Sequence record: OZ035732.1
Origin: Kayfunavirus PDP351P3
Direction: 5' to 3' (one strand)
DNA: 39,050 nt
Below, one piece after another: positions 1 to 8,663 of the stretch. A program made the translations under genes and the position numbers. The notes below the pieces were generated by a model that was not told where the DNA came from, did no database searches, and worked only from the letters and a program-made list of their open reading frames with translations. Within the stretch, counting starts at the first letter, position 1, and each line of letters begins with the position of its first letter.

Positions 1-29
1 TACAAAACGATTAAAGGAGGTGGTAAAAC

Positions 30-293
30 ATGACGCAGATGGACTTAGAGAAGTTCCTCTTGATGCTGGATACTGAACGTGCTCGCCTCATGCTGCAAGA
101 CCTGCGGGATGACTCTAAGCGTTCACCTCAGCTCTACAACGCCATTGAGAAGCTGCTTGCTCGTCACAACTTCGTGCTAAGCAAGGTGTCTGTGGACGAG
201 AAGACGCTGGCTGATATGGAGGCCCTGAACGCAGAGTACGATAAGGTGCTTTCAGCGACTGAGGATAATGACACCGGGTATGGTGTTCAATAA
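30..293 (+). CDS. small terminase subunit / DNA maturation protein A (T7 gp18-like)
   Basis: 87-aa ORF with AAAGGAGG RBS upstream; aligns over full length with T7 gp18 as recalled (LEMLDT...RSPQLYNAI.KLL.RH); synteny upstream of 18.5 and 19. Confidence 0.85.
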   Translation: MTQMDLEKFLLMLDTERARLMLQDLRDDSKRSPQLYNAIEKLLARHNFVLSKVSVDEKTLADMEALNAEYDKVLSATEDNDTGYGVQ

Positions 294-296
294 GTG

Positions 297-337
297 TTAG
301 ACTCAAGGTCATCTACAGGTGGCCTTTATGATTAACA
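297..337 (+). promoter_or_regulatory. conserved structured RNA element copy 1 (putative RNase III processing site, R18.5-like)
   Basis: Motif AGACTCAAGGTCAT-[small hairpin CTAC/GTGG]-GGCCTTTATGATTA, one of three copies, each about 20 nt upstream of an RBS; lower stem AAGG/CCTT. Confidence 0.45.
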
Positions 338-350
338 CTAAGGAGGTTAC

Positions 351-752
351 ATGAAAGATTCATACATAAGTGGCGGTTACTGGAAGGTTACTCGTAATGG
401 TAAGGTTCATGGAGTTCATAGATTACTATGGGAGGAAGCCTACGGTCCTATCCCAGATGGTTACGTCATAGACCACATTGATAGGAATCCTATGAATAAC
501 GAACTGTCAAACCTTAGGTGCATACCTAAAGGCGCAAACAAGGCTAACACTGTATCCTCTAGGGAACTACCTAAAGGCGTATACTCTAGGTTTGCTAAAC
601 GTCAAGGTATTACTGTGTACTATGGTGACATTAGGATGGGAGGTAAGAAAGAAACGCACGCTCCTACTAAGAATCTGATGGAAGTCGTGGAATGGGCTAA
701 GTCAACTCATAGTAGAATGCTTAAGGAGACATATGGTATTTCAAATGTTTAA
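351..752 (+). CDS. free-standing HNH homing endonuclease
   Basis: 133-aa ORF with AAGGAGG RBS; motif H-R-LLWEE-YGPIP-GYVIDHID-N-NN-SNLR shared with the two other HNH ORFs in the window; AT-richer codon usage (AGG, ATA, CTA) than neighbours; inserted between genes 18 and 18.5. Confidence 0.85.
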   Translation: MKDSYISGGYWKVTRNGKVHGVHRLLWEEAYGPIPDGYVIDHIDRNPMNNELSNLRCIPKGANKANTVSSRELPKGVYSRFAKRQGITVYYGDIRMGGKKETHAPTKNLMEVVEWAKSTHSRMLKETYGISNV

Positions 753-1179
753 GAGAGCGGCTCCGTGGTTACTTGCAGCAGTGATGTTTGCTGGTGGCTA
801 CCACACCGCTAACAATAAGTGGGAGGCTAAGGTCAATGCAGAATACACCTCGAATCTTAAGGCATCGGAAGATACAAGGCTTGCTGTCCAAGCTGAAGTC
901 AACAAAGTGTCCAAACGGTTTCAGGACGAAATGTCCTCGCTGGAAGGCAGCACTGATAGGATTATTGCTGACCTTCAGTCTGACAATAAGCGGCTGCGCA
1001 TCCGAGTCAAACCTACGAGTGGAACCACGCAAAGTGACGGTCGATGCGTCATTGATGGTTACGCCGAACTTGACGAACGAGATGCTAAACGTCTTATCGC
1101 CATCGGAGTGAAAGGAGACAAATGGATTAAGGCACTTCAGGACACTGTGAGAGCCTTACAGCAAGATAAGGAGGTGTAA
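733..1179 (+). CDS. i-spanin (Rz-like, T7 gp18.5-like)
   Basis: 148-aa ORF with N-terminal TM segment ([13 protein letters not shown]); aligns with recalled T7 gp18.5 ([20 protein letters not shown]...DERDAKR); start could instead be ATG 745. Confidence 0.8.
836..1111 (+). CDS. o-spanin (Rz1-like, T7 gp18.7-like) embedded in +1 frame of the i-spanin gene
   Basis: Alternate-frame ORF inside 18.5; GGAGG RBS 9 nt before ATG 836; lipobox LTISGC followed by ASES..., matching recalled T7 gp18.7 (PRWKGALIGL...ISGCASES...MLNV). Confidence 0.7.
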   Translation: MQNTPRILRHRKIQGLLSKLKSTKCPNGFRTKCPRWKAALIGLLLTFSLTISGCASESNLRVEPRKVTVDASLMVTPNLTNEMLNVLSPSE

Positions 1180-1181
1180 CC

Positions 1182-2945
1182 TTGAGTAAAGACTTAGTGG
1201 CCCGTCAGGCGCTAATGACTGCACGTATGAAGGCAGACTTCGTGTTCTTCCTGTTCGTCCTGTGGAAAGCTCTGTCACTCCCCGTCCCGACTCGCTGTCA
1301 GATTGATATGGCGAAGAAACTATCGGCTGGGGACAACAGGCGCTTCATCCTACAGGCGTTCCGTGGTATCGGGAAGTCCTTCATTACGTGTGCCTTCGTT
1401 GTCTGGAAGTTATGGAACAACCCAGACTTGAAGTTCATGATTGTGTCGGCCTCAAAGGAACGAGCCGATGCTAACTCCATCTTCATCAAGCGAATCATCG
1501 ACCTCATGCCTCAGCTTCAGGAACTCAAACCTAAGCAGGGACAGCGAGATGCGGTTATCAGCTTCGACGTTGGACCAGCCAAGCCAGACCACTCACCTTC
1601 GGTTAAGTCCGTTGGTATCACTGGTCAGTTGACTGGTAGTCGTGCTGACATCCTGATTGCCGATGACGTGGAGGTTCCGAACAACTCAGCGACTCAGGCC
1701 GCACGAGACCGTCTGTCAGAGCTTGTGAAAGAGTTCGACGCTATCCTGAAGCCGGGAGGTACAATCATCTATCTGGGTACTCCTCAGAACGAGATGACCT
1801 TGTATCGTGAGCTGGAAGGCCGTGGGTACACCACTACTATCTGGCCTGCTCGTTACCCACGTGATAAGAAGGACTGGCAGTCTTACGGCGACCGTCTGGC
1901 ACCGATGCTTCAGGCAGAGCTGGAAGAGGACCCTGAGTCCTTCTACTGGCGTCCGACTGATGAAGTACGCTTCGATGATACGGACCTGAAGGAACGCGAG
2001 TTGTCATATGGTAAAGCTGGCTTCGCTCTACAGTTCATGCTTAACCCGAACCTGAGTGATGCAGAGAAGTACCCTCTGAAGCTCCGTGACCTTATCGTAG
2101 CAGACTTGGACCCAGCATCCAGCCCAATGGTCTACCAATGGTTGCCGAACCCTCAGAACAAGCGTGAGGACGTTCCTAACGTTGGACTCATGGGTGACTC
2201 ATACCACACGTATCAGACTGTAGGTTCTGCCTTCAGTTCGTACACCCAGAAGATTCTGGTCATTGACCCTAGTGGTCGTGGTAAGGATGAAACTGGCTAT
2301 GCGGTACTATACCAGCTCAACGGCTACATCTTCGCTATGGAAGTTGGTGGTATGCGTGGTGGCTATGAAGACTCTACTCTGGAAGCGCTGGCTAAGATTG
2401 GTCGTAAGTGGAAGGTCAACGAATACGTCATTGAGGGTAACTTCGGTGATGGCATGTACCTTGAGCTATTCAAGCCTGTAGCGGCCCGTATTCATCCTGC
2501 TGCTGTAACTGAAGTGAAGAGTAAGGGTCAGAAGGAACTCCGCATATGTGACGTTCTGGAGCCTATCATGGGGTCTCACCGACTTATCGTTAACGCTGCT
2601 GCTATCGTCCAAGATTACCAGTCGGCCTCTGATAAGGATGGTGTTCGTAACCCTATCTACTCTCTCTTCTACCAGATGACACGTATCTCTCGTGAACGTG
2701 GAGCCTTGGCACACGATGACCGACTTGATGCTCTGGCTATCGGTGTACAGTTCTTCGTTGAGTCTATGGCTAAGGATGCCAACAAAGGCGAACGTGAAGT
2801 CACTGAGGAGTGGCTGGAGGAACAGATGGAGAACCCACGGAAAGGCTTCGAGTCCATCCACACTGAGTTCTGGGACAATGGGGTCCGGGTAACTCACGAT
2901 ACGGACGACGAGCTGGGGCTAGGGTCCTACATTACGTTCCACTAG
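1182..2945 (+). CDS. large terminase subunit / DNA maturation protein B (T7 gp19-like)
   Basis: 587-aa ORF, TTG start with AAGGAGG RBS; near-colinear match to recalled T7 gp19 ([72 protein letters not shown]). Confidence 0.95.
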
Positions 2946-3039
2946 CTTAATGAATAACTATGGGTGAAAGCTGCATGAATACGCAGTTAGTAACCTATAG
3001 TTACTACCAGTCTAACCTACTGTTTTACAAGGAGTTTGG

Positions 3040-3062
3040 ACTTAACTATCACTATAGGGAAG
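3040..3062 (+). promoter_or_regulatory. phage RNAP promoter (phiOR-like, downstream of gene 19)
   Basis: ACTTAACTATCACTATA-GGGAAG; matches the 11-member promoter family of this genome; predicted +1 G at 3057. Confidence 0.7.
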
Positions 3063-3241
3063 ACCCCCGGTTACTTATAGTATTACTGTAGTGAATATAC
3101 ATATGCAGACTTTATGCAAGACCTTAGGAGGCAGACTCCGAGTTCTTACCTAAGGCTTGCACCGATGGAAGGAGGGTGATATTAATCATAATCCCTCCAA
3201 TACAGATAGTAAAGACCATAGATACAGGAGGTATGTAGCAT

Positions 3242-3400
3242 ATGGCAAAGACCAAAGCTGTACTTAAAGCTCTGGCGACCAATCGAGCTACATACAGGTT
3301 TCTTACTGCTGTTCTACTTGCTGCTGGCGTTACTGCTGGAAGTCAGTGGGTCGGGTGGGTCGAGACTCTCGTATGTTCTCTGGTCTCTCAGTGTAATTAA
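3242..3400 (+). CDS. small hydrophobic protein (gene 19.5 position)
   Basis: 52-aa ORF with AGGAGG RBS, predicted TM segment (FLTAVLLAAGVTAG); position corresponds to T7 gene 19.5; no sequence match asserted. Confidence 0.4.
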   Translation: MAKTKAVLKALATNRATYRFLTAVLLAAGVTAGSQWVGWVETLVCSLVSQCN

Positions 3401-3561
3401 CGCAATCATGGTAACGATTCATGAGCGGAAGACCTAAGGTCAGTACGTGGATAAAGACTCACTCTACTGACCTTAGCTACTGTAGTCAAGGACTTTAGGT
3501 AACACCTTAAGAGAAGCTCACTTAGGGTCATCCTACTTATTGGTCTATCCTAGTGTCGCCT

Positions 3562-3602
3562 GACCTACGGTCCTTGACCTACAGTGGCTGTGGCCTACAG
3601 TA
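3562..3602 (+). repeat. short-repeat array (ACCTACRGT x3), candidate SRR-like repeats left of the terminal repeat
   Basis: GACCTACGGT, GACCTACAGT and GCCTACAGT within 40 bp. Confidence 0.5.
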
Positions 3603-3638
3603 GTGACGATGAGTTTGGACCAAAAGTTTGAGACCACA

Positions 3639-3840
3639 TCTCACAGTTCAAGAACCTCAAGTCTCCCCATAGGCCCTCTTTCAGTCCAGACCAAAGGCCC
3701 TACCCCAGTCTATCATAAGGTTGGACCGATGGTCAAGACGTTAGGTCGACGATAGGTCTAGGCTATGGCTTAGGGAAGGACGATAGGTTGGGACTATGGG
3801 TCTTCTTTGAGTCTCTATCTGTATCAGACCTTGAGTCACT
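3639..3840 (+). repeat. probable direct terminal repeat (single collapsed copy) containing the physical genome ends
   Basis: Begins with TCTCACAGT, the sequence that starts the T7 genome as I recall it; internal similarity to the T7 terminal repeat (TCCCCCATAGG, TCTCTATCTGT); flanked on both sides by ACCTACAGT arrays; boundaries approximate. Confidence 0.45.
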
Positions 3841-3925
3841 ACCTACAGTCTAACTACCTACAGTCTAACTACCTACAGTCATCGACCATCGGTACTGCCG
3901 CTACCTACAGTCAGAGACCTACAGT
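3836..3925 (+). repeat. short tandem repeat array (CTAACTACCTACAGT x3 plus 2 extra CCTACAGT), SRL-like
   Basis: Three tandem 15-bp units followed by two more CCTACAGT copies, directly right of the putative terminal repeat. Confidence 0.6.
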
Positions 3926-4036
3926 TAATAGACACAAAGGCTATAGACTTAAGGTCTAAGACATGTTAGTCAAAGACTATATCCTCTTACACCATGAGGC
4001 CGACGATAGCTTAATCAATATTATTTAAATTACCTA

Positions 4037-4065
4037 TTGACTATGGGTCTCGACTATGGCTTAAT
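4037..4065 (+). promoter_or_regulatory. candidate host sigma70 early promoter (A1-like)
   Basis: TTGACT-N17-CTTAAT; downstream sequence (CGTCAACACGACACGGCA) resembles the T7 A1 region as recalled. Confidence 0.4.
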
Positions 4066-4177
4066 AGCTTCCGTCAACACGACACGGCAACAACCGGATA
4101 GTGAAGACGCCGGGTCATCCCGGTTAAGTAGACAGCCTGCTAAGTCATACGAACAACAGGCAGATGACAGAAAGTAG

Positions 4178-4207
4178 TTGACAAGTAGTACAGACTTAAA
4201 GTAGTAT
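4178..4207 (+). promoter_or_regulatory. candidate host sigma70 early promoter (A3-like)
   Basis: TTGACA-N18-TAGTAT followed by GTACCACAT...CACTGAAA...CTCTTTAACAATCTGG, closely resembling the T7 A3 promoter and downstream leader as recalled. Confidence 0.5.
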
Positions 4208-4406
4208 GTACCACATCGAAACAACGGTGACGACCGACACTGAAACGGTCTACCTGAAGTCCTCTGACTGAAGGGAATGCTCTTTAACAATCTGGATAAA
4301 CTCTTAATGTGCGCCGATAGCGACTAACTACAGGGTCTTTGAGTCTACATCTGAAGGCCCTGACTGATAGTCACTAACACATACTTAACTTTGAGAGGAT
4401 ATAACT

Positions 4407-4916
4407 ATGGAACGTAACGCTAACGCATACTATGAGCTGCTGGCTGCAACTGTTGAAGCATTTAACGAGCGCATTCAGTACGACGAAATAGCTGAAGGCG
4501 ATGACTACTGCGATGCGCTGCATGAAGTCGTAGACGATATGGTTCCGCACTATTACCACGAGATTTTCACGGTGATGGCTGCCGATGGTATTGACCATGA
4601 GTTCGAAGACTCTGGGCTGATGCCTGAGACCAAGGACGTAACGTGTATACTACAAGCTCGCATCTATGAGGCACTGTATAATGATGTGTCTAATAGCTCG
4701 GATGTGGTATGGTTCGAGCCTGAAGAGGGCGACGAAAAGGCTGAATATTGGGTAGTTGATGCTAGAACAGGCGAGATAATTGAGCAAGCTGTATCACTTT
4801 ACGAGGCTATTGCATGTGCAAAAGACCTCTATGAGGCAGGTTTTCACATGCAGGTCGAAGACATCAATGATAACGTAGTGTTCGACCCTGCGTCTGCTGA
4901 GGAGGACTGCGAGTGA
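4407..4916 (+). CDS. ocr: Ocr-like DNA-mimic anti-restriction protein (gene 0.3) with about 55-aa C-terminal extension
   Basis: 169-aa highly acidic ORF; residues 1-105 align with recalled T7 Ocr ([43 protein letters not shown] vs [43 protein letters not shown]); first gene after the early promoters. Confidence 0.85.
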
Positions 4917-5071
4917 TAGTAACTTATGGTATCTGCCAGTATCACGTCAACATCGCCCGTATTATGGTCAAGACCGGGCAGTTAACGCACGATGCGGCTA
5001 TACGTCACCTGAAAGCGGTCTATAATGGCCGCAAGCGTATACACGACAGCTTACACGCTGAGGACAAGTAA
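4913..5071 (+). CDS. hypothetical early protein (52 aa, GTG start)
   Basis: GAGGAGG RBS 7 nt upstream of GTG; overlaps ocr stop; below the 60-aa ORF-track cutoff; no homolog recognised. Confidence 0.35.
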
Positions 5072-5981: not shown

Positions 5982-8663
5982 ATGAGCGTCATATCTATTG
6001 ACAAACATGACTTCTCTGATGTGTCGAACGCTATTGAGCCGTTTAACCTGCTGGCCGACCACTATGGGCAAGACCTTGCAGTCAAACAGCTTCAGCTTGA
6101 GCATGAGGCATACACTGAAGGCGAGCGACGTTTCATCAAGAACCTTGAGCGACAGACTGAGCGCGGGGAACTGGCAGACAATCAGGTCGCCAAGCCTTTG
6201 ATGCAGACTCTTGTACCTAAGATTGCGCAAGCCGTCAGGGAGTGGCATGAAGGTCCAGACGGGAAGCTGTCAACCTCTCGTCCGAGCGTAGCGTTCACCA
6301 TGTTGAGCACTGAAGAGAAGGTCGTTAAAGACCGCTCTCTACGCATCTCCTGTGAGTCTGCTGCGGTTATCATACTGAAGGTCATCCTCTCCAAGCTTGT
6401 CAAGCCTGAAGGGATACCGATTACACCGATGGCCTCCGCGATAGGCCGTACACTTGAGGATGAAATCCGCTTCGGTCGCATCCGAGACAAGGAGCAGGAG
6501 CACTTCAAGAAGGCGATAGCTGAGAACCTGAACAAGCGAGCCGGCGCATCCTACAAGAAGGCCTACATGCAAGCTGTTGAGACATCCATGCTAGAGCAGG
6601 GTCAACTGGAAGATGCGTGGGGGACTTGGAGTCCGACCGAGGCTGTCCACGTTGGCATCAAGATGCTTGAGATTGTCATCCAGTCAACACAACTGGTCGA
6701 GCTTAAGCGCTACGGTGCTGGCAATGCAGCGGCTGACGTTGAGATGGTCCACCTGTCAGACTTCTGGGTAAAGAAGATGGCACAACGAGGATTCAGCCTT
6801 GCGGGTATCGCTCCGGTCTACCAACCTTGCGTCGTTCCACCTAAGCCGTGGACTGGTGTCGTAGGAGGTGGGTACTGGGCCAAAGGACGCAGACCACTAC
6901 CACTGATTCGCTTAGGGTCTAAGTCTGCGGTGGCACGTTACGAAGACGTGTACATGCCTGAAGTCTATGACGCTGTGAATATCATCCAGAATACGCCTTG
7001 GAAAGTGAACAAGAAGGTTCTGGACGTGGTGAACATGGTCGAGAAGCTGAATAACACGCCTATTGACGACATCCCTCAGATGGAACCACTGAAGCCTGAA
7101 GACTATGCGGGTGAGACTGAAGAGGAACTCAAGGCGTGGAAGAAGGCTGCTGCTGGTATCTACCGCCGAGAGAAGGCCCGGCAGTCACGCAGATTGTCAC
7201 TGAGCTTTATCGTTAACCAAGCGAACAAGTTCTCTCAGTTCAAGGCCATCTGGTTCCCGTACAACATGGACTGGCGAGGTCGCGTCTACGCTGTGCCGAT
7301 GTTCAACCCTCAGGGTAACGACATGCAAAAGGGTCTCCTGACTCTGGCAGTCGGTAAGCCTATTGGTGCTGATGGTTTCAAATGGCTGAAGGTCCACGGT
7401 GCAAACTGCGCGGGTATTGATAAAGTAACCTTCGAGGAGCGCATAAAGTGGGTTGAAGACAACCACGATAACATCATGGCTACCGCTAAGGCACCGATGG
7501 ACAGCATTGAGTGGTGGGGCAAGTTAGACTCTCCGTTCTGCTTCCTTGCGTTCTGCTTCGAGTATGCTGGCGTAATGTACCACGGTTTGTCTTACTCCTG
7601 TTCGCTGCCGATAGCTTTCGATGGGTCCTGCTCTGGGATTCAGCACTTTAGTGCGATGCTTCGTGATCACATCGGTGGACATGCGGTAAACCTGACGCCT
7701 TCCGGTAAGGTCCAAGACATTTACCGCATCGTGTCTGACCGCATTGAGGAGGAGCTTAAAGTCCTGCTGGTTAACGGTACGGATAACGAGATGGTGACTC
7801 ACGAGGACAAGAAAACGGGTGAGATTACCGAGCGTCTCAAGCTGGGGACACGAGAGCTGGCCCGTCAATGGCTGACATACGGTATGTCACGCAAGGTCAC
7901 TAAGCGCTCAGTAATGACTCTGGCCTACGGGTCGAAAGAGTATGGCTTCGCAGACCAAGTGTACGAGGACATCGTGATGCCAGCGATTGACTCAGGGTCT
8001 GGCGCTATGTTCACTGAGCCAAGCCAAGCGTCTCGCTTCATGGCTAAGATGATTTGGGAAGCTGTGAGCGTGACCGTAGTTGCTGCGGTAGACGCTATGA
8101 AGTGGCTTCAAGGTGCCGCCAAGCTGCTGGCTGCTGAAGTGAAGGACAAGAAGACTGGAGAAATCCTTAAGCCTTGCCTTCCGGTACACTGGGTCACACC
8201 TGATGGTTTCCCGGTCTGGCAGGAATACCGCAAGAAGGATACCACTCGTCTTAACCTGATGTTCTTAGGGTCATTCAACCTTCAGCCTACAGTCAATAAA
8301 GGCATGAAGAAAGAGCTGGACAAGCACAAGCAGGAGTCAGGCATTAGCCCGAACTTCGTCCACTCACAAGATGGTAGCCACCTCCGAAAGACTGTAGTCC
8401 ACACACATCGTAAGTACGGAGTGATGTCATTCGCAGTGATTCATGATAGCTTCGGGACCATCCCGGCTGACGCTGAGTATCTATTCCGTGGTGTCCGCGA
8501 GACGATGGTCGAGACCTACCGCGACAACGATGTGCTGCTTGACTTCTACGAGCAGTTTGAATACCAGCTTCATGAGAGCCAGCGCGACAAGCTGCCAGAG
8601 CTTCCGAAGAAAGGTAAACTGAATATCGAAGACATCTTGTCTTCAGACTTTGCATTCGCTTAA
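5982..8663 (+). CDS. single-subunit DNA-directed RNA polymerase (T7 gene 1-like)
   Basis: 893-aa ORF; long colinear identity blocks with recalled T7 RNAP (FPYNMDWRGRVYAV, MFNPQGNDM, DGSCSGIQHFSAMLRD, RSVTKRSVMTLAYGS, HDSFGT, terminal FAFA). Confidence 0.98.
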   Translation: MSVISIDKHDFSDVSNAIEPFNLLADHYGQDLAVKQLQLEHEAYTEGERRFIKNLERQTERGELADNQVAKPLMQTLVPKIAQAVREWHEGPDGKLSTSRPSVAFTMLSTEEKVVKDRSLRISCESAAVIILKVILSKLVKPEGIPITPMASAIGRTLEDEIRFGRIRDKEQEHFKKAIAENLNKRAGASYKKAYMQAVETSMLEQGQLEDAWGTWSPTEAVHVGIKMLEIVIQSTQLVELKRYGAGNAAADVEMVHLSDFWVKKMAQRGFSLAGIAPVYQPCVVPPKPWTGVVGGGYWAKGRRPLPLIRLGSKSAVARYEDVYMPEVYDAVNIIQNTPWKVNKKVLDVVNMVEKLNNTPIDDIPQMEPLKPEDYAGETEEELKAWKKAAAGIYRREKARQSRRLSLSFIVNQANKFSQFKAIWFPYNMDWRGRVYAVPMFNPQGNDMQKGLLTLAVGKPIGADGFKWLKVHGANCAGIDKVTFEERIKWVEDNHDNIMATAKAPMDSIEWWGKLDSPFCFLAFCFEYAGVMYHGLSYSCSLPIAFDGSCSGIQHFSAMLRDHIGGHAVNLTPSGKVQDIYRIVSDRIEEELKVLLVNGTDNEMVTHEDKKTGEITERLKLGTRELARQWLTYGMSRKVTKRSVMTLAYGSKEYGFADQVYEDIVMPAIDSGSGAMFTEPSQASRFMAKMIWEAVSVTVVAAVDAMKWLQGAAKLLAAEVKDKKTGEILKPCLPVHWVTPDGFPVWQEYRKKDTTRLNLMFLGSFNLQPTVNKGMKKELDKHKQESGISPNFVHSQDGSHLRKTVVHTHRKYGVMSFAVIHDSFGTIPADAEYLFRGVRETMVETYRDNDVLLDFYEQFEYQLHESQRDKLPELPKKGKLNIEDILSSDFAFA

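Follow-up and report, generated by a model that had tools for sequence, protein, structure and literature searches.

The 39,050-nucleotide (nt) sequence of Kayfunavirus PDP351P3 (OZ035732.1), referred to here as the window, carries on its + strand a homologue of gene 0.3 that encodes a K1F-type extended form of the anti-restriction protein Ocr. The open reading frame (ORF; 4407..4916 in the ORF list) starts with ATG, comprises 169 codons and ends with TGA at 4914-4916, and a Shine-Dalgarno-like GAGAGGA (4393..4399, +), read from the sequence, lies 7 nt 5′ of the ATG. The product is composed of four segments encoded one after another on the + strand: an Ocr DNA-mimic domain (residues 1-103; 4407..4715), an acidic flexible linker (residues 104-112, EPEEGDEKA; 4716..4742), a putative accessory domain (residues 113-161; 4743..4889), hereafter the C-domain, and an acidic tail (residues 162-169, ASAEEDCE; 4890..4913). 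This architecture, namely Ocr followed by a linker and a separate domain, is near-certain. A first-pass annotation, made from the sequence alone, had described the product as an Ocr-like DNA mimic with an additional C-terminal domain, and the peptide strings that it quoted occur exactly in the translated ORF.

The gene 0.3 product is 92.9% identical over its full length to that of Escherichia virus TH20, and whole-length tblastn matches were obtained in 78 phage records. The 6-kb region around the gene shows 92-95% identity to many Kayfunavirus (K1F-like) genomes. In the window, a non-coding early region is followed by gene 0.3, several small early ORFs and, at 5982, a gene for an 893-aa single-subunit RNA polymerase; gene 0.3 has the left-end-type position, 5′ of the RNA polymerase gene, that is expected of an early gene encoding Ocr, and the order in K1F is identical.

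The N-terminal Ocr domain

The assignment of the N-terminal part to Ocr, proposed in the first-pass annotation, was upheld by family, sequence and structure comparisons. The Pfam family ocr (PF08684) matches residues 8-96 with 104.6 bits (cut-off 25; E = 4.4e-30), and phmmer aligns residues 10-101 with the T7 Ocr structures 1s7z and 2y7c (E about 1e-25; 1.4e-25 for 1s7z). PHROG 2568, “ocr-like anti-restriction,” was matched with E = 2.4e-55 by a profile that also spans most of the extension. The domain comprises helices at residues 7-25, 35-59 and 75-94, followed by SNSSDVVWF. When the full-length AlphaFold2 model was compared with the PDB by Foldseek, only Ocr was found, with 1s7z as the top match (probability 1.00, 53% identity, E = 2.2e-3); this E-value is modest because the monomer model contains a low-confidence loop at residues 61-73.

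T7 Ocr (gp0.3; PDB 1S7Z; PF08684) is homologous to the window protein over residues 10-101, with a tblastn identity of 61.5% in residues 17-94, and the two proteins have in common the F54/L82 dimer interface, strong acidity and the place of first early gene. They part after residue 94: in T7 Ocr, which has the length of 117 aa given in the first-pass annotation, the last helix continues into an acidic tail (…WEDAEDLLNEYLEEVEEYEEDEE), whereas the window protein continues with SNSSDVVWF, the acidic linker, a 49-aa domain predicted to be folded and an EEDCE tail. F54 and L82 do not vary across the 63 relatives that were aligned. In T7 Ocr these residues lie at the dimer interface, and the phage anti-restriction-induced system (PARIS) senses Ocr via the F54/L82 face together with charge contacts (PMC10802264). 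The Ocr part of the window protein contains 24 acidic (D+E) and 4 basic (K+R) residues, giving a net charge of -20, and the net charge of the whole protein is -37 vs. -28 for T7 Ocr, an acidity consistent with DNA mimicry. By homology to T7 Ocr, the N-terminal module would dimerise and mimic DNA.

Anatomy and predicted fold of the extension

About 66 residues (104-169) extend beyond the part aligned with Ocr, and 49 of them (113-161) make up the predicted folded domain. In the 63-relative alignment and its column entropies, the Ocr helices are followed by a conserved SNSSDVVWF(E), a poly-acidic linker, the 49-residue block at 113-161 and an acidic tail ending in EEDCE, an ending that is shared with short forms of Ocr. 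The linker comprises anywhere from 0 to about 20 residues, depending on the relative, and has a mean column entropy of 1.08 bits; in the AlphaFold2 model its predicted local distance difference test score (pLDDT) falls below 50 at residues 108-110, and the whole-chain predicted template modelling score (pTM) is 0.50, values that are as expected of, and would fit, two domains on a flexible tether.

AlphaFold2 monomer predictions were made for the full-length protein, from 63 sequences, and for the extension by itself, from 27, and the two agree on a beta-beta-alpha-beta-beta arrangement with strands at 114-118, 124-129, 148-151 and 157-159, a helix at 131-143 and a core pLDDT of 84-92, so that the extra domain of about 50-55 aa claimed in the first-pass annotation is indeed predicted to fold on its own. 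Invariant or nearly invariant positions in the block comprise EYWVVD, T121-G122, L131, A134, C137, Y142, G145, H147 and V150-EDINDxVVFDP, and the variable ones are located in strand 2 and on one face of the helix. The helical region 131-146 occurs in two main allelic types, one K1F-like, as in the window protein, and the other, LEVATACAKDHYAIGR, in most relatives. The net charge of the C-domain is -9 in the window protein and ranges from -2 to -11, being acidic in every version examined.

The tail carries Cys168 (window 4908..4910), which is kept in 55 of 60 sequences. A lone conserved Cys is also seen in short acidic tails, in the context EEDCE in Kayfunavirus long and short forms and EEDCDD in the Ocr of Klebsiella phages (short tails of the surveyed loci L010-L016 and L020-L041), and C137 and H147 are nearly invariant in the long form; a metal site or a redox role for C168, C137 and H147 is conceivable. 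In addition, the segment preceding the linker (4686..4724) resembles the end of the C-domain (4854..4892), as a sub-threshold second match in hmmsearch (score -0.8), which may be due to chance or may be a trace of the origin of the cassette described below.

Profile searches placed the extension in no known family, and structure prediction gave it a fold of its own, both analyses having been among the checks suggested in the first-pass annotation. Scans of the C-domain alone against Pfam, PHROGs and NCBIfam gave nothing above noise, with no Pfam match at E up to 10 that was deemed real; the noise-level scores include PepSY (E = 0.09), phrog_6224 (E = 0.009-0.016, in only 2 of 22 members) and D-hydantoinase (E = 0.01-0.03). 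A profile search of PDB sequences with the C-domain returned chance matches only (E > 0.6). Foldseek of the C-domain against viral predicted structures found a 170-aa protein, which is most likely the Aeromonas-type extended Ocr described below, and then many uncharacterised phage proteins of 45-95 aa, none of the latter with E < 1e-3. The T4 antitoxin Dmd and the anti-CRISPR proteins AcrIF9 and AcrIIC3, all small alpha/beta inhibitors from phages, gave scores in the twilight range and have no sequence similarity to the C-domain; they resemble it in the kind of fold only, and they are free-standing, whereas the C-domain is fused to a DNA mimic. Judged from these models, the C-domain appears to be a small alpha/beta unit. 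Small phage proteins commonly have folds of this kind, and several such proteins are inhibitors that bind other proteins.

Conservation and selection in K1F-like phages

A tblastn search with the last 75 residues matched 74 phage records, 70 of them with at least 80% query coverage, and K1F gp0.3 is among these matches, with 89% identity in the C-terminal 75 aa. In a metagenome-scale protein database, more than 110 distinct clusters at 90% identity, with lengths of 162-179 aa, have the same architecture, and PF08684 is the sole Pfam family recorded for them. Other Kayfunavirus Ocr proteins and K1F gp0.3 (CAJ29342.1, “putative ocr protein”) have the same 169-aa architecture and the same genomic position and differ from the window protein only as alleles do; the window protein is another allele of K1F gp0.3. 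The extension is therefore “extra” only relative to T7 and is the standard form of gp0.3 in K1F-like phages. The first-pass annotation had named a standard length in close relatives, combined with the lack of a separately predicted fold, as telling against its proposal; the length did prove standard, but a separate fold is predicted.

The C-domain is under purifying selection. Fourteen independently sequenced genes keep one uninterrupted frame, and their substitutions are biased to synonymous ones, as in coding sequence, which disposes of the concern that a frameshift or sequencing error had produced the extension. The median ratio of nonsynonymous to synonymous substitution rates (dN/dS; Nei-Gojobori) in the 14 genes is 0.20 for codons 1-100 and 0.38 for codons 113-161, and dN is 0.161 in the C-domain vs. 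0.057 in the Ocr core, corresponding to roughly threefold faster evolution at the protein level.

Long and short alleles of gene 0.3

At the DNA level, the C-domain is present or absent as an in-frame cassette of roughly 165-180 bp. In a survey of 66 Ocr loci from IMG/VR, with lengths determined by simple ORF extension, only four were long and nearly all of the others measured 108-123 aa; three longer values (132, 134, and 140 aa) reflect an upstream start picked by the script or, in L058, an unrelated tail. Eight loci (L009-L016), 89-95% identical to the window gene in the Ocr part, end in VVWFEAEEDCE, in ...VVWFEAEESDEEDCE or in VVWFEAEEGDE. In seven of these eight short loci the tail of the long form is kept and the intervening block is gone, the ending being EEDCE in L010-L016 and EEGDE in L009, which is phage PE3-1. 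Among named Kayfunavirus phages, PE3-1 and Baskent_phicoli_1 carry the short allele and are without exactly the 165-180 bp that encode the C-domain; the Ocr of Klebsiella phages is likewise a short form and ends in EEDCDD.

When the DNA of long and short alleles is aligned, the short ones are seen to be missing 165-180 bp, cleanly and in frame, and the sequence to either side of the gap is conserved. The gap edges in the window coincide with an imperfect direct repeat, CTGA(A/G)GAGG, whose upstream copy, CTGAAGAGG (4720..4728, +), lies at the indel boundary of this alignment and whose downstream copy, CTGAGGAGG (4897..4905, +), 177 bp away, agrees with it in 8 of 9 bases. Recombination between the two copies would give exactly ...FE(A/P)EEDCE, the tail found in the short alleles L011 and L014. 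In a neighbour-joining tree built from the initial 306 nt, which carries no support values and in which recombination is likely, long and short alleles are interleaved, and the more distant outgroups are all short. We interpret this pattern as a single ancient gain with repeated loss or exchange thereafter, in which individual events may have run in either direction.

Several rearranged forms of the gene were encountered, the first three below being rare damaged versions. A metagenomic protein of 167 aa (P0114), present on 7 contigs of up to 38.9 kb, is a natural deletion product in which Ocr and the C-domain, cut after ...AIGRHLK, are fused in frame to the C-terminal half of a gp0.35/gp0.4-like protein. 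In three Logan contigs from three samples (L072-L074), an internal deletion has removed almost all of Ocr, leaving a 57-aa ORF (L072:4001-4174) in which Ocr residues 1-11 (MERNTNAYYDL) run directly into the latter half of a C-domain of the Kosakonia type described below; this may be a natural mutant that has lost Ocr. Three further Logan contigs from one study (L075-L077; SRR33193082-84) contain an additional G (+1) in a G-run at the W115 codon, near L075:2505, which divides the gene between an Ocr of 117 aa and an overlapping ORF of 59 aa, the ATG start of the latter being newly created; this insertion could be a real mutation or a homopolymer error. Finally, in the 37.6-kb T7-like genome IMGVR_UViG_638277131_000001 (L058), ORF 906-1328 encodes a T7-type Ocr of 140 aa whose acidic tail is replaced by 30 unrelated residues, which looks like a deletion that fused gene 0.3 to a downstream early gene.

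Distribution of the C-domain

Alignment revealed two further types of C-domain, which share 30-40% identity with that of the K1F type and are likewise joined to Ocr, but in different phages. The first is found in Aeromonas phage PZL-Ah1 and its relatives, Stenotrophomonas phage IME15 and Escherichia coli phage Ebrios, and the second in Kosakonia phage Kc166A. The early regions of PZL-Ah1 and Ebrios carry a gene that targets S-adenosylmethionine (SAM) and a kinase gene, the former annotated as SAM hydrolase in PZL-Ah1 and, at the same position, as SAM-dependent methyltransferase in Ebrios.

The C-domain was seen only fused to Ocr, or as debris of such fusions, in early genes of T7-like lytic phages. 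No copy was detected in plasmids by tblastn, and no relatives were detected in the genomes of 185,579 bacterial and archaeal species, each represented once. All copies found in IMG/VR are linked to Ocr; in addition, there were two metagenome matches whose context was not examined. A search with the domain profile (hmmsearch) of six-frame ORFs from the window and about 90 early-region loci found neither a free-standing nor a second copy, and all that word-indexed searches retrieved, with either the domain or its profile as query, was fragments of gene 0.3 itself. Searching 1.84 billion representative proteins by phmmer with the last 75 residues gave no real match, in a search that also missed the Aeromonas type, so that relatives of 30% identity or less would escape it. 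The sole match there, to a repetitive 891-aa protein, is spurious, as query residues 7-31 (the WFEP… stretch) were matched to repeated …VYDAATGE… units.

Neighbouring genes and genome ends

The ORF that follows gene 0.3 (4913..5071, +; 52 aa) begins with a GTG that overlaps the gene 0.3 stop codon and is the positional homologue of K1F gp0.35. The start of K1F gp0.35 is an ATG one codon downstream, where the window has ATA. In a pairwise comparison, the 52-aa product is weakly similar to T7 gp0.4 (32% over 41 aa; E = 4e-4), and the gene at the gp0.35 position in related contigs is matched by Pfam PF26807, “Phage_T7_GP04.” T7 Gp0.4 is reported in a 2026 abstract to be sensed by the defence protein CapRel in a process that involves FtsZ (PMC13423816).

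The window represents a circularly permuted T7-like genome in which late genes precede the early region (1..4400), and a 587-codon ORF at 1182..2945 has the size and position of the terminase large-subunit gene of related contigs. Because the late genes come before the early region in this permuted arrangement, the physical genome ends and the terminal repeat should be located between about 2950 and 4400.

Possible roles of the two modules

Module 1 (residues 1-103) would act as a canonical Ocr, dimerising via F54/L82 and, in its capacity as an acidic mimic of bent B-DNA, blocking type I restriction-modification as well as the methyltransferases of bacteriophage exclusion (BREX) systems. The first-pass annotation had proposed that an added domain could change or widen the range of targets; none of the analyses pointed to a particular one. 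In our reading of the T7 Ocr structure 1S7Z, the last helix has its C-terminal end directed away from the dimer interface. If this geometry holds for the window protein, the dimer would carry one C-domain per subunit near each of its outer ends, a placement that would leave the DNA-mimic surface free and the C-domain available to bind something else. Module 2 (residues 113-161), a compact acidic domain on a flexible poly-acidic linker, may then be an accessory protein-binding module, acting as a second decoy or inhibitor directed against another host factor. Such a module may be useful only in some hosts, which would explain its clean in-frame gain and loss among near-identical phages. We give an even chance to this picture of gp0.3 as an anti-defence protein of two modules, the second serving as an accessory binder that is specific to certain hosts. 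The binding role of module 2, suggested by its fold class, charge and evolutionary pattern, is at best as likely as not and perhaps somewhat less likely than that.

It is also tempting to speculate, with clearly less confidence, that the C-domain has an anti-defence or anti-sensor function independent of Ocr and is swapped, as a module, into and out of the acidic tail of Ocr. If so, gp0.3 of the K1F type would be an inhibitor with two warheads, the mimic directed against type I restriction-modification and BREX and the tethered domain against a second host system or the Ocr-sensing PARIS, and the recurrent loss of the domain would reflect hosts that detect the C-domain itself.

A different possibility is that the C-domain acts in cis on Ocr, either shielding it from sensors, such as by preventing binding of the PARIS-type AriA, or tuning which DNA-binding enzymes fit. 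PARIS senses T7 Ocr via F54 and L82 (PMC10802264), and both residues are unchanged in the window protein, so that phages of this kind would need another escape from PARIS; furthermore, the presence/absence polymorphism fits an arms race over recognition of Ocr, in which the variable face of the helix could be the contested surface. On the other hand, a flexible linker of 0 to about 20 residues disfavours a fixed position on the surface of Ocr, and a literature search found no experiments on K1F-type Ocr and PARIS. An action in cis is, in our judgement, rather unlikely.

Slightly less probable again is a C-domain without separate activity, which would serve as an appendage for solubility or stability or would simply be tolerated as the passenger of an old in-frame insertion. 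Three observations agree with this explanation: the C-domain is repeatedly missing from close relatives that are otherwise unchanged, its protein sequence evolves about three times faster than that of the Ocr core, and no functional homologue was found in the Pfam, NCBIfam, PDB-profile and 1.84-billion-protein searches. However, a dN/dS of 0.38 is well below 1, the invariant or nearly invariant residues H147, E151, D152, N154, and D155 are of polar or surface type, as would be unexpected of a passenger, and the C-domain has been retained in three clades that have only 30-40% identity between them.

It is very improbable that the C-domain is a ClpS-like module engaging the ClpA/ClpAP machinery. 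The ClpS fold, with three helices and three strands, differs in its secondary-structure count from the one helix and four strands of the C-domain, as does the fold shared with the C-terminal domain of ribosomal protein L7/L12; the match is partial, covering about half of ClpS, there is no Pfam ClpS match or profile similarity, and hhalign of the C-domain profile against E. coli ClpS (a sequence entered by hand) gave a probability of 0.06%, for which reasons membership of ClpS was rejected. A frameshift or assembly fusion of Ocr to a downstream ORF is ruled out for practical purposes, with the frame kept in K1F, about 74-78 phage records and more than 110 clusters and with selection at the codon level; nothing in the window speaks for it, and the additional G at the W115 codon in L075-L077, which splits the gene, is the reverse case.

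Ocr is the textbook DNA-mimic anti-restriction protein and has been central to work on BREX inhibition and PARIS sensing; to our knowledge, essentially all mechanistic work on Ocr has used the 117-aa T7 protein. Databases have listed the K1F-type protein, with Ocr as its routine label, ever since the sequencing of the K1F genome. What is new is the selected, separately folding C-domain without known relatives, for which no family model was found on its own and of which a literature search found no discussion. K1F-like Kayfunavirus phages are a large group of therapeutic-candidate coliphages that carry this extended Ocr. If the C-domain binds a host factor, it would represent an unrecognised anti-defence module; if it does nothing separable, it would still be relevant to the prediction of host range from Ocr annotations. 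The long and short alleles in otherwise near-isogenic phages would constitute a ready-made natural experiment.
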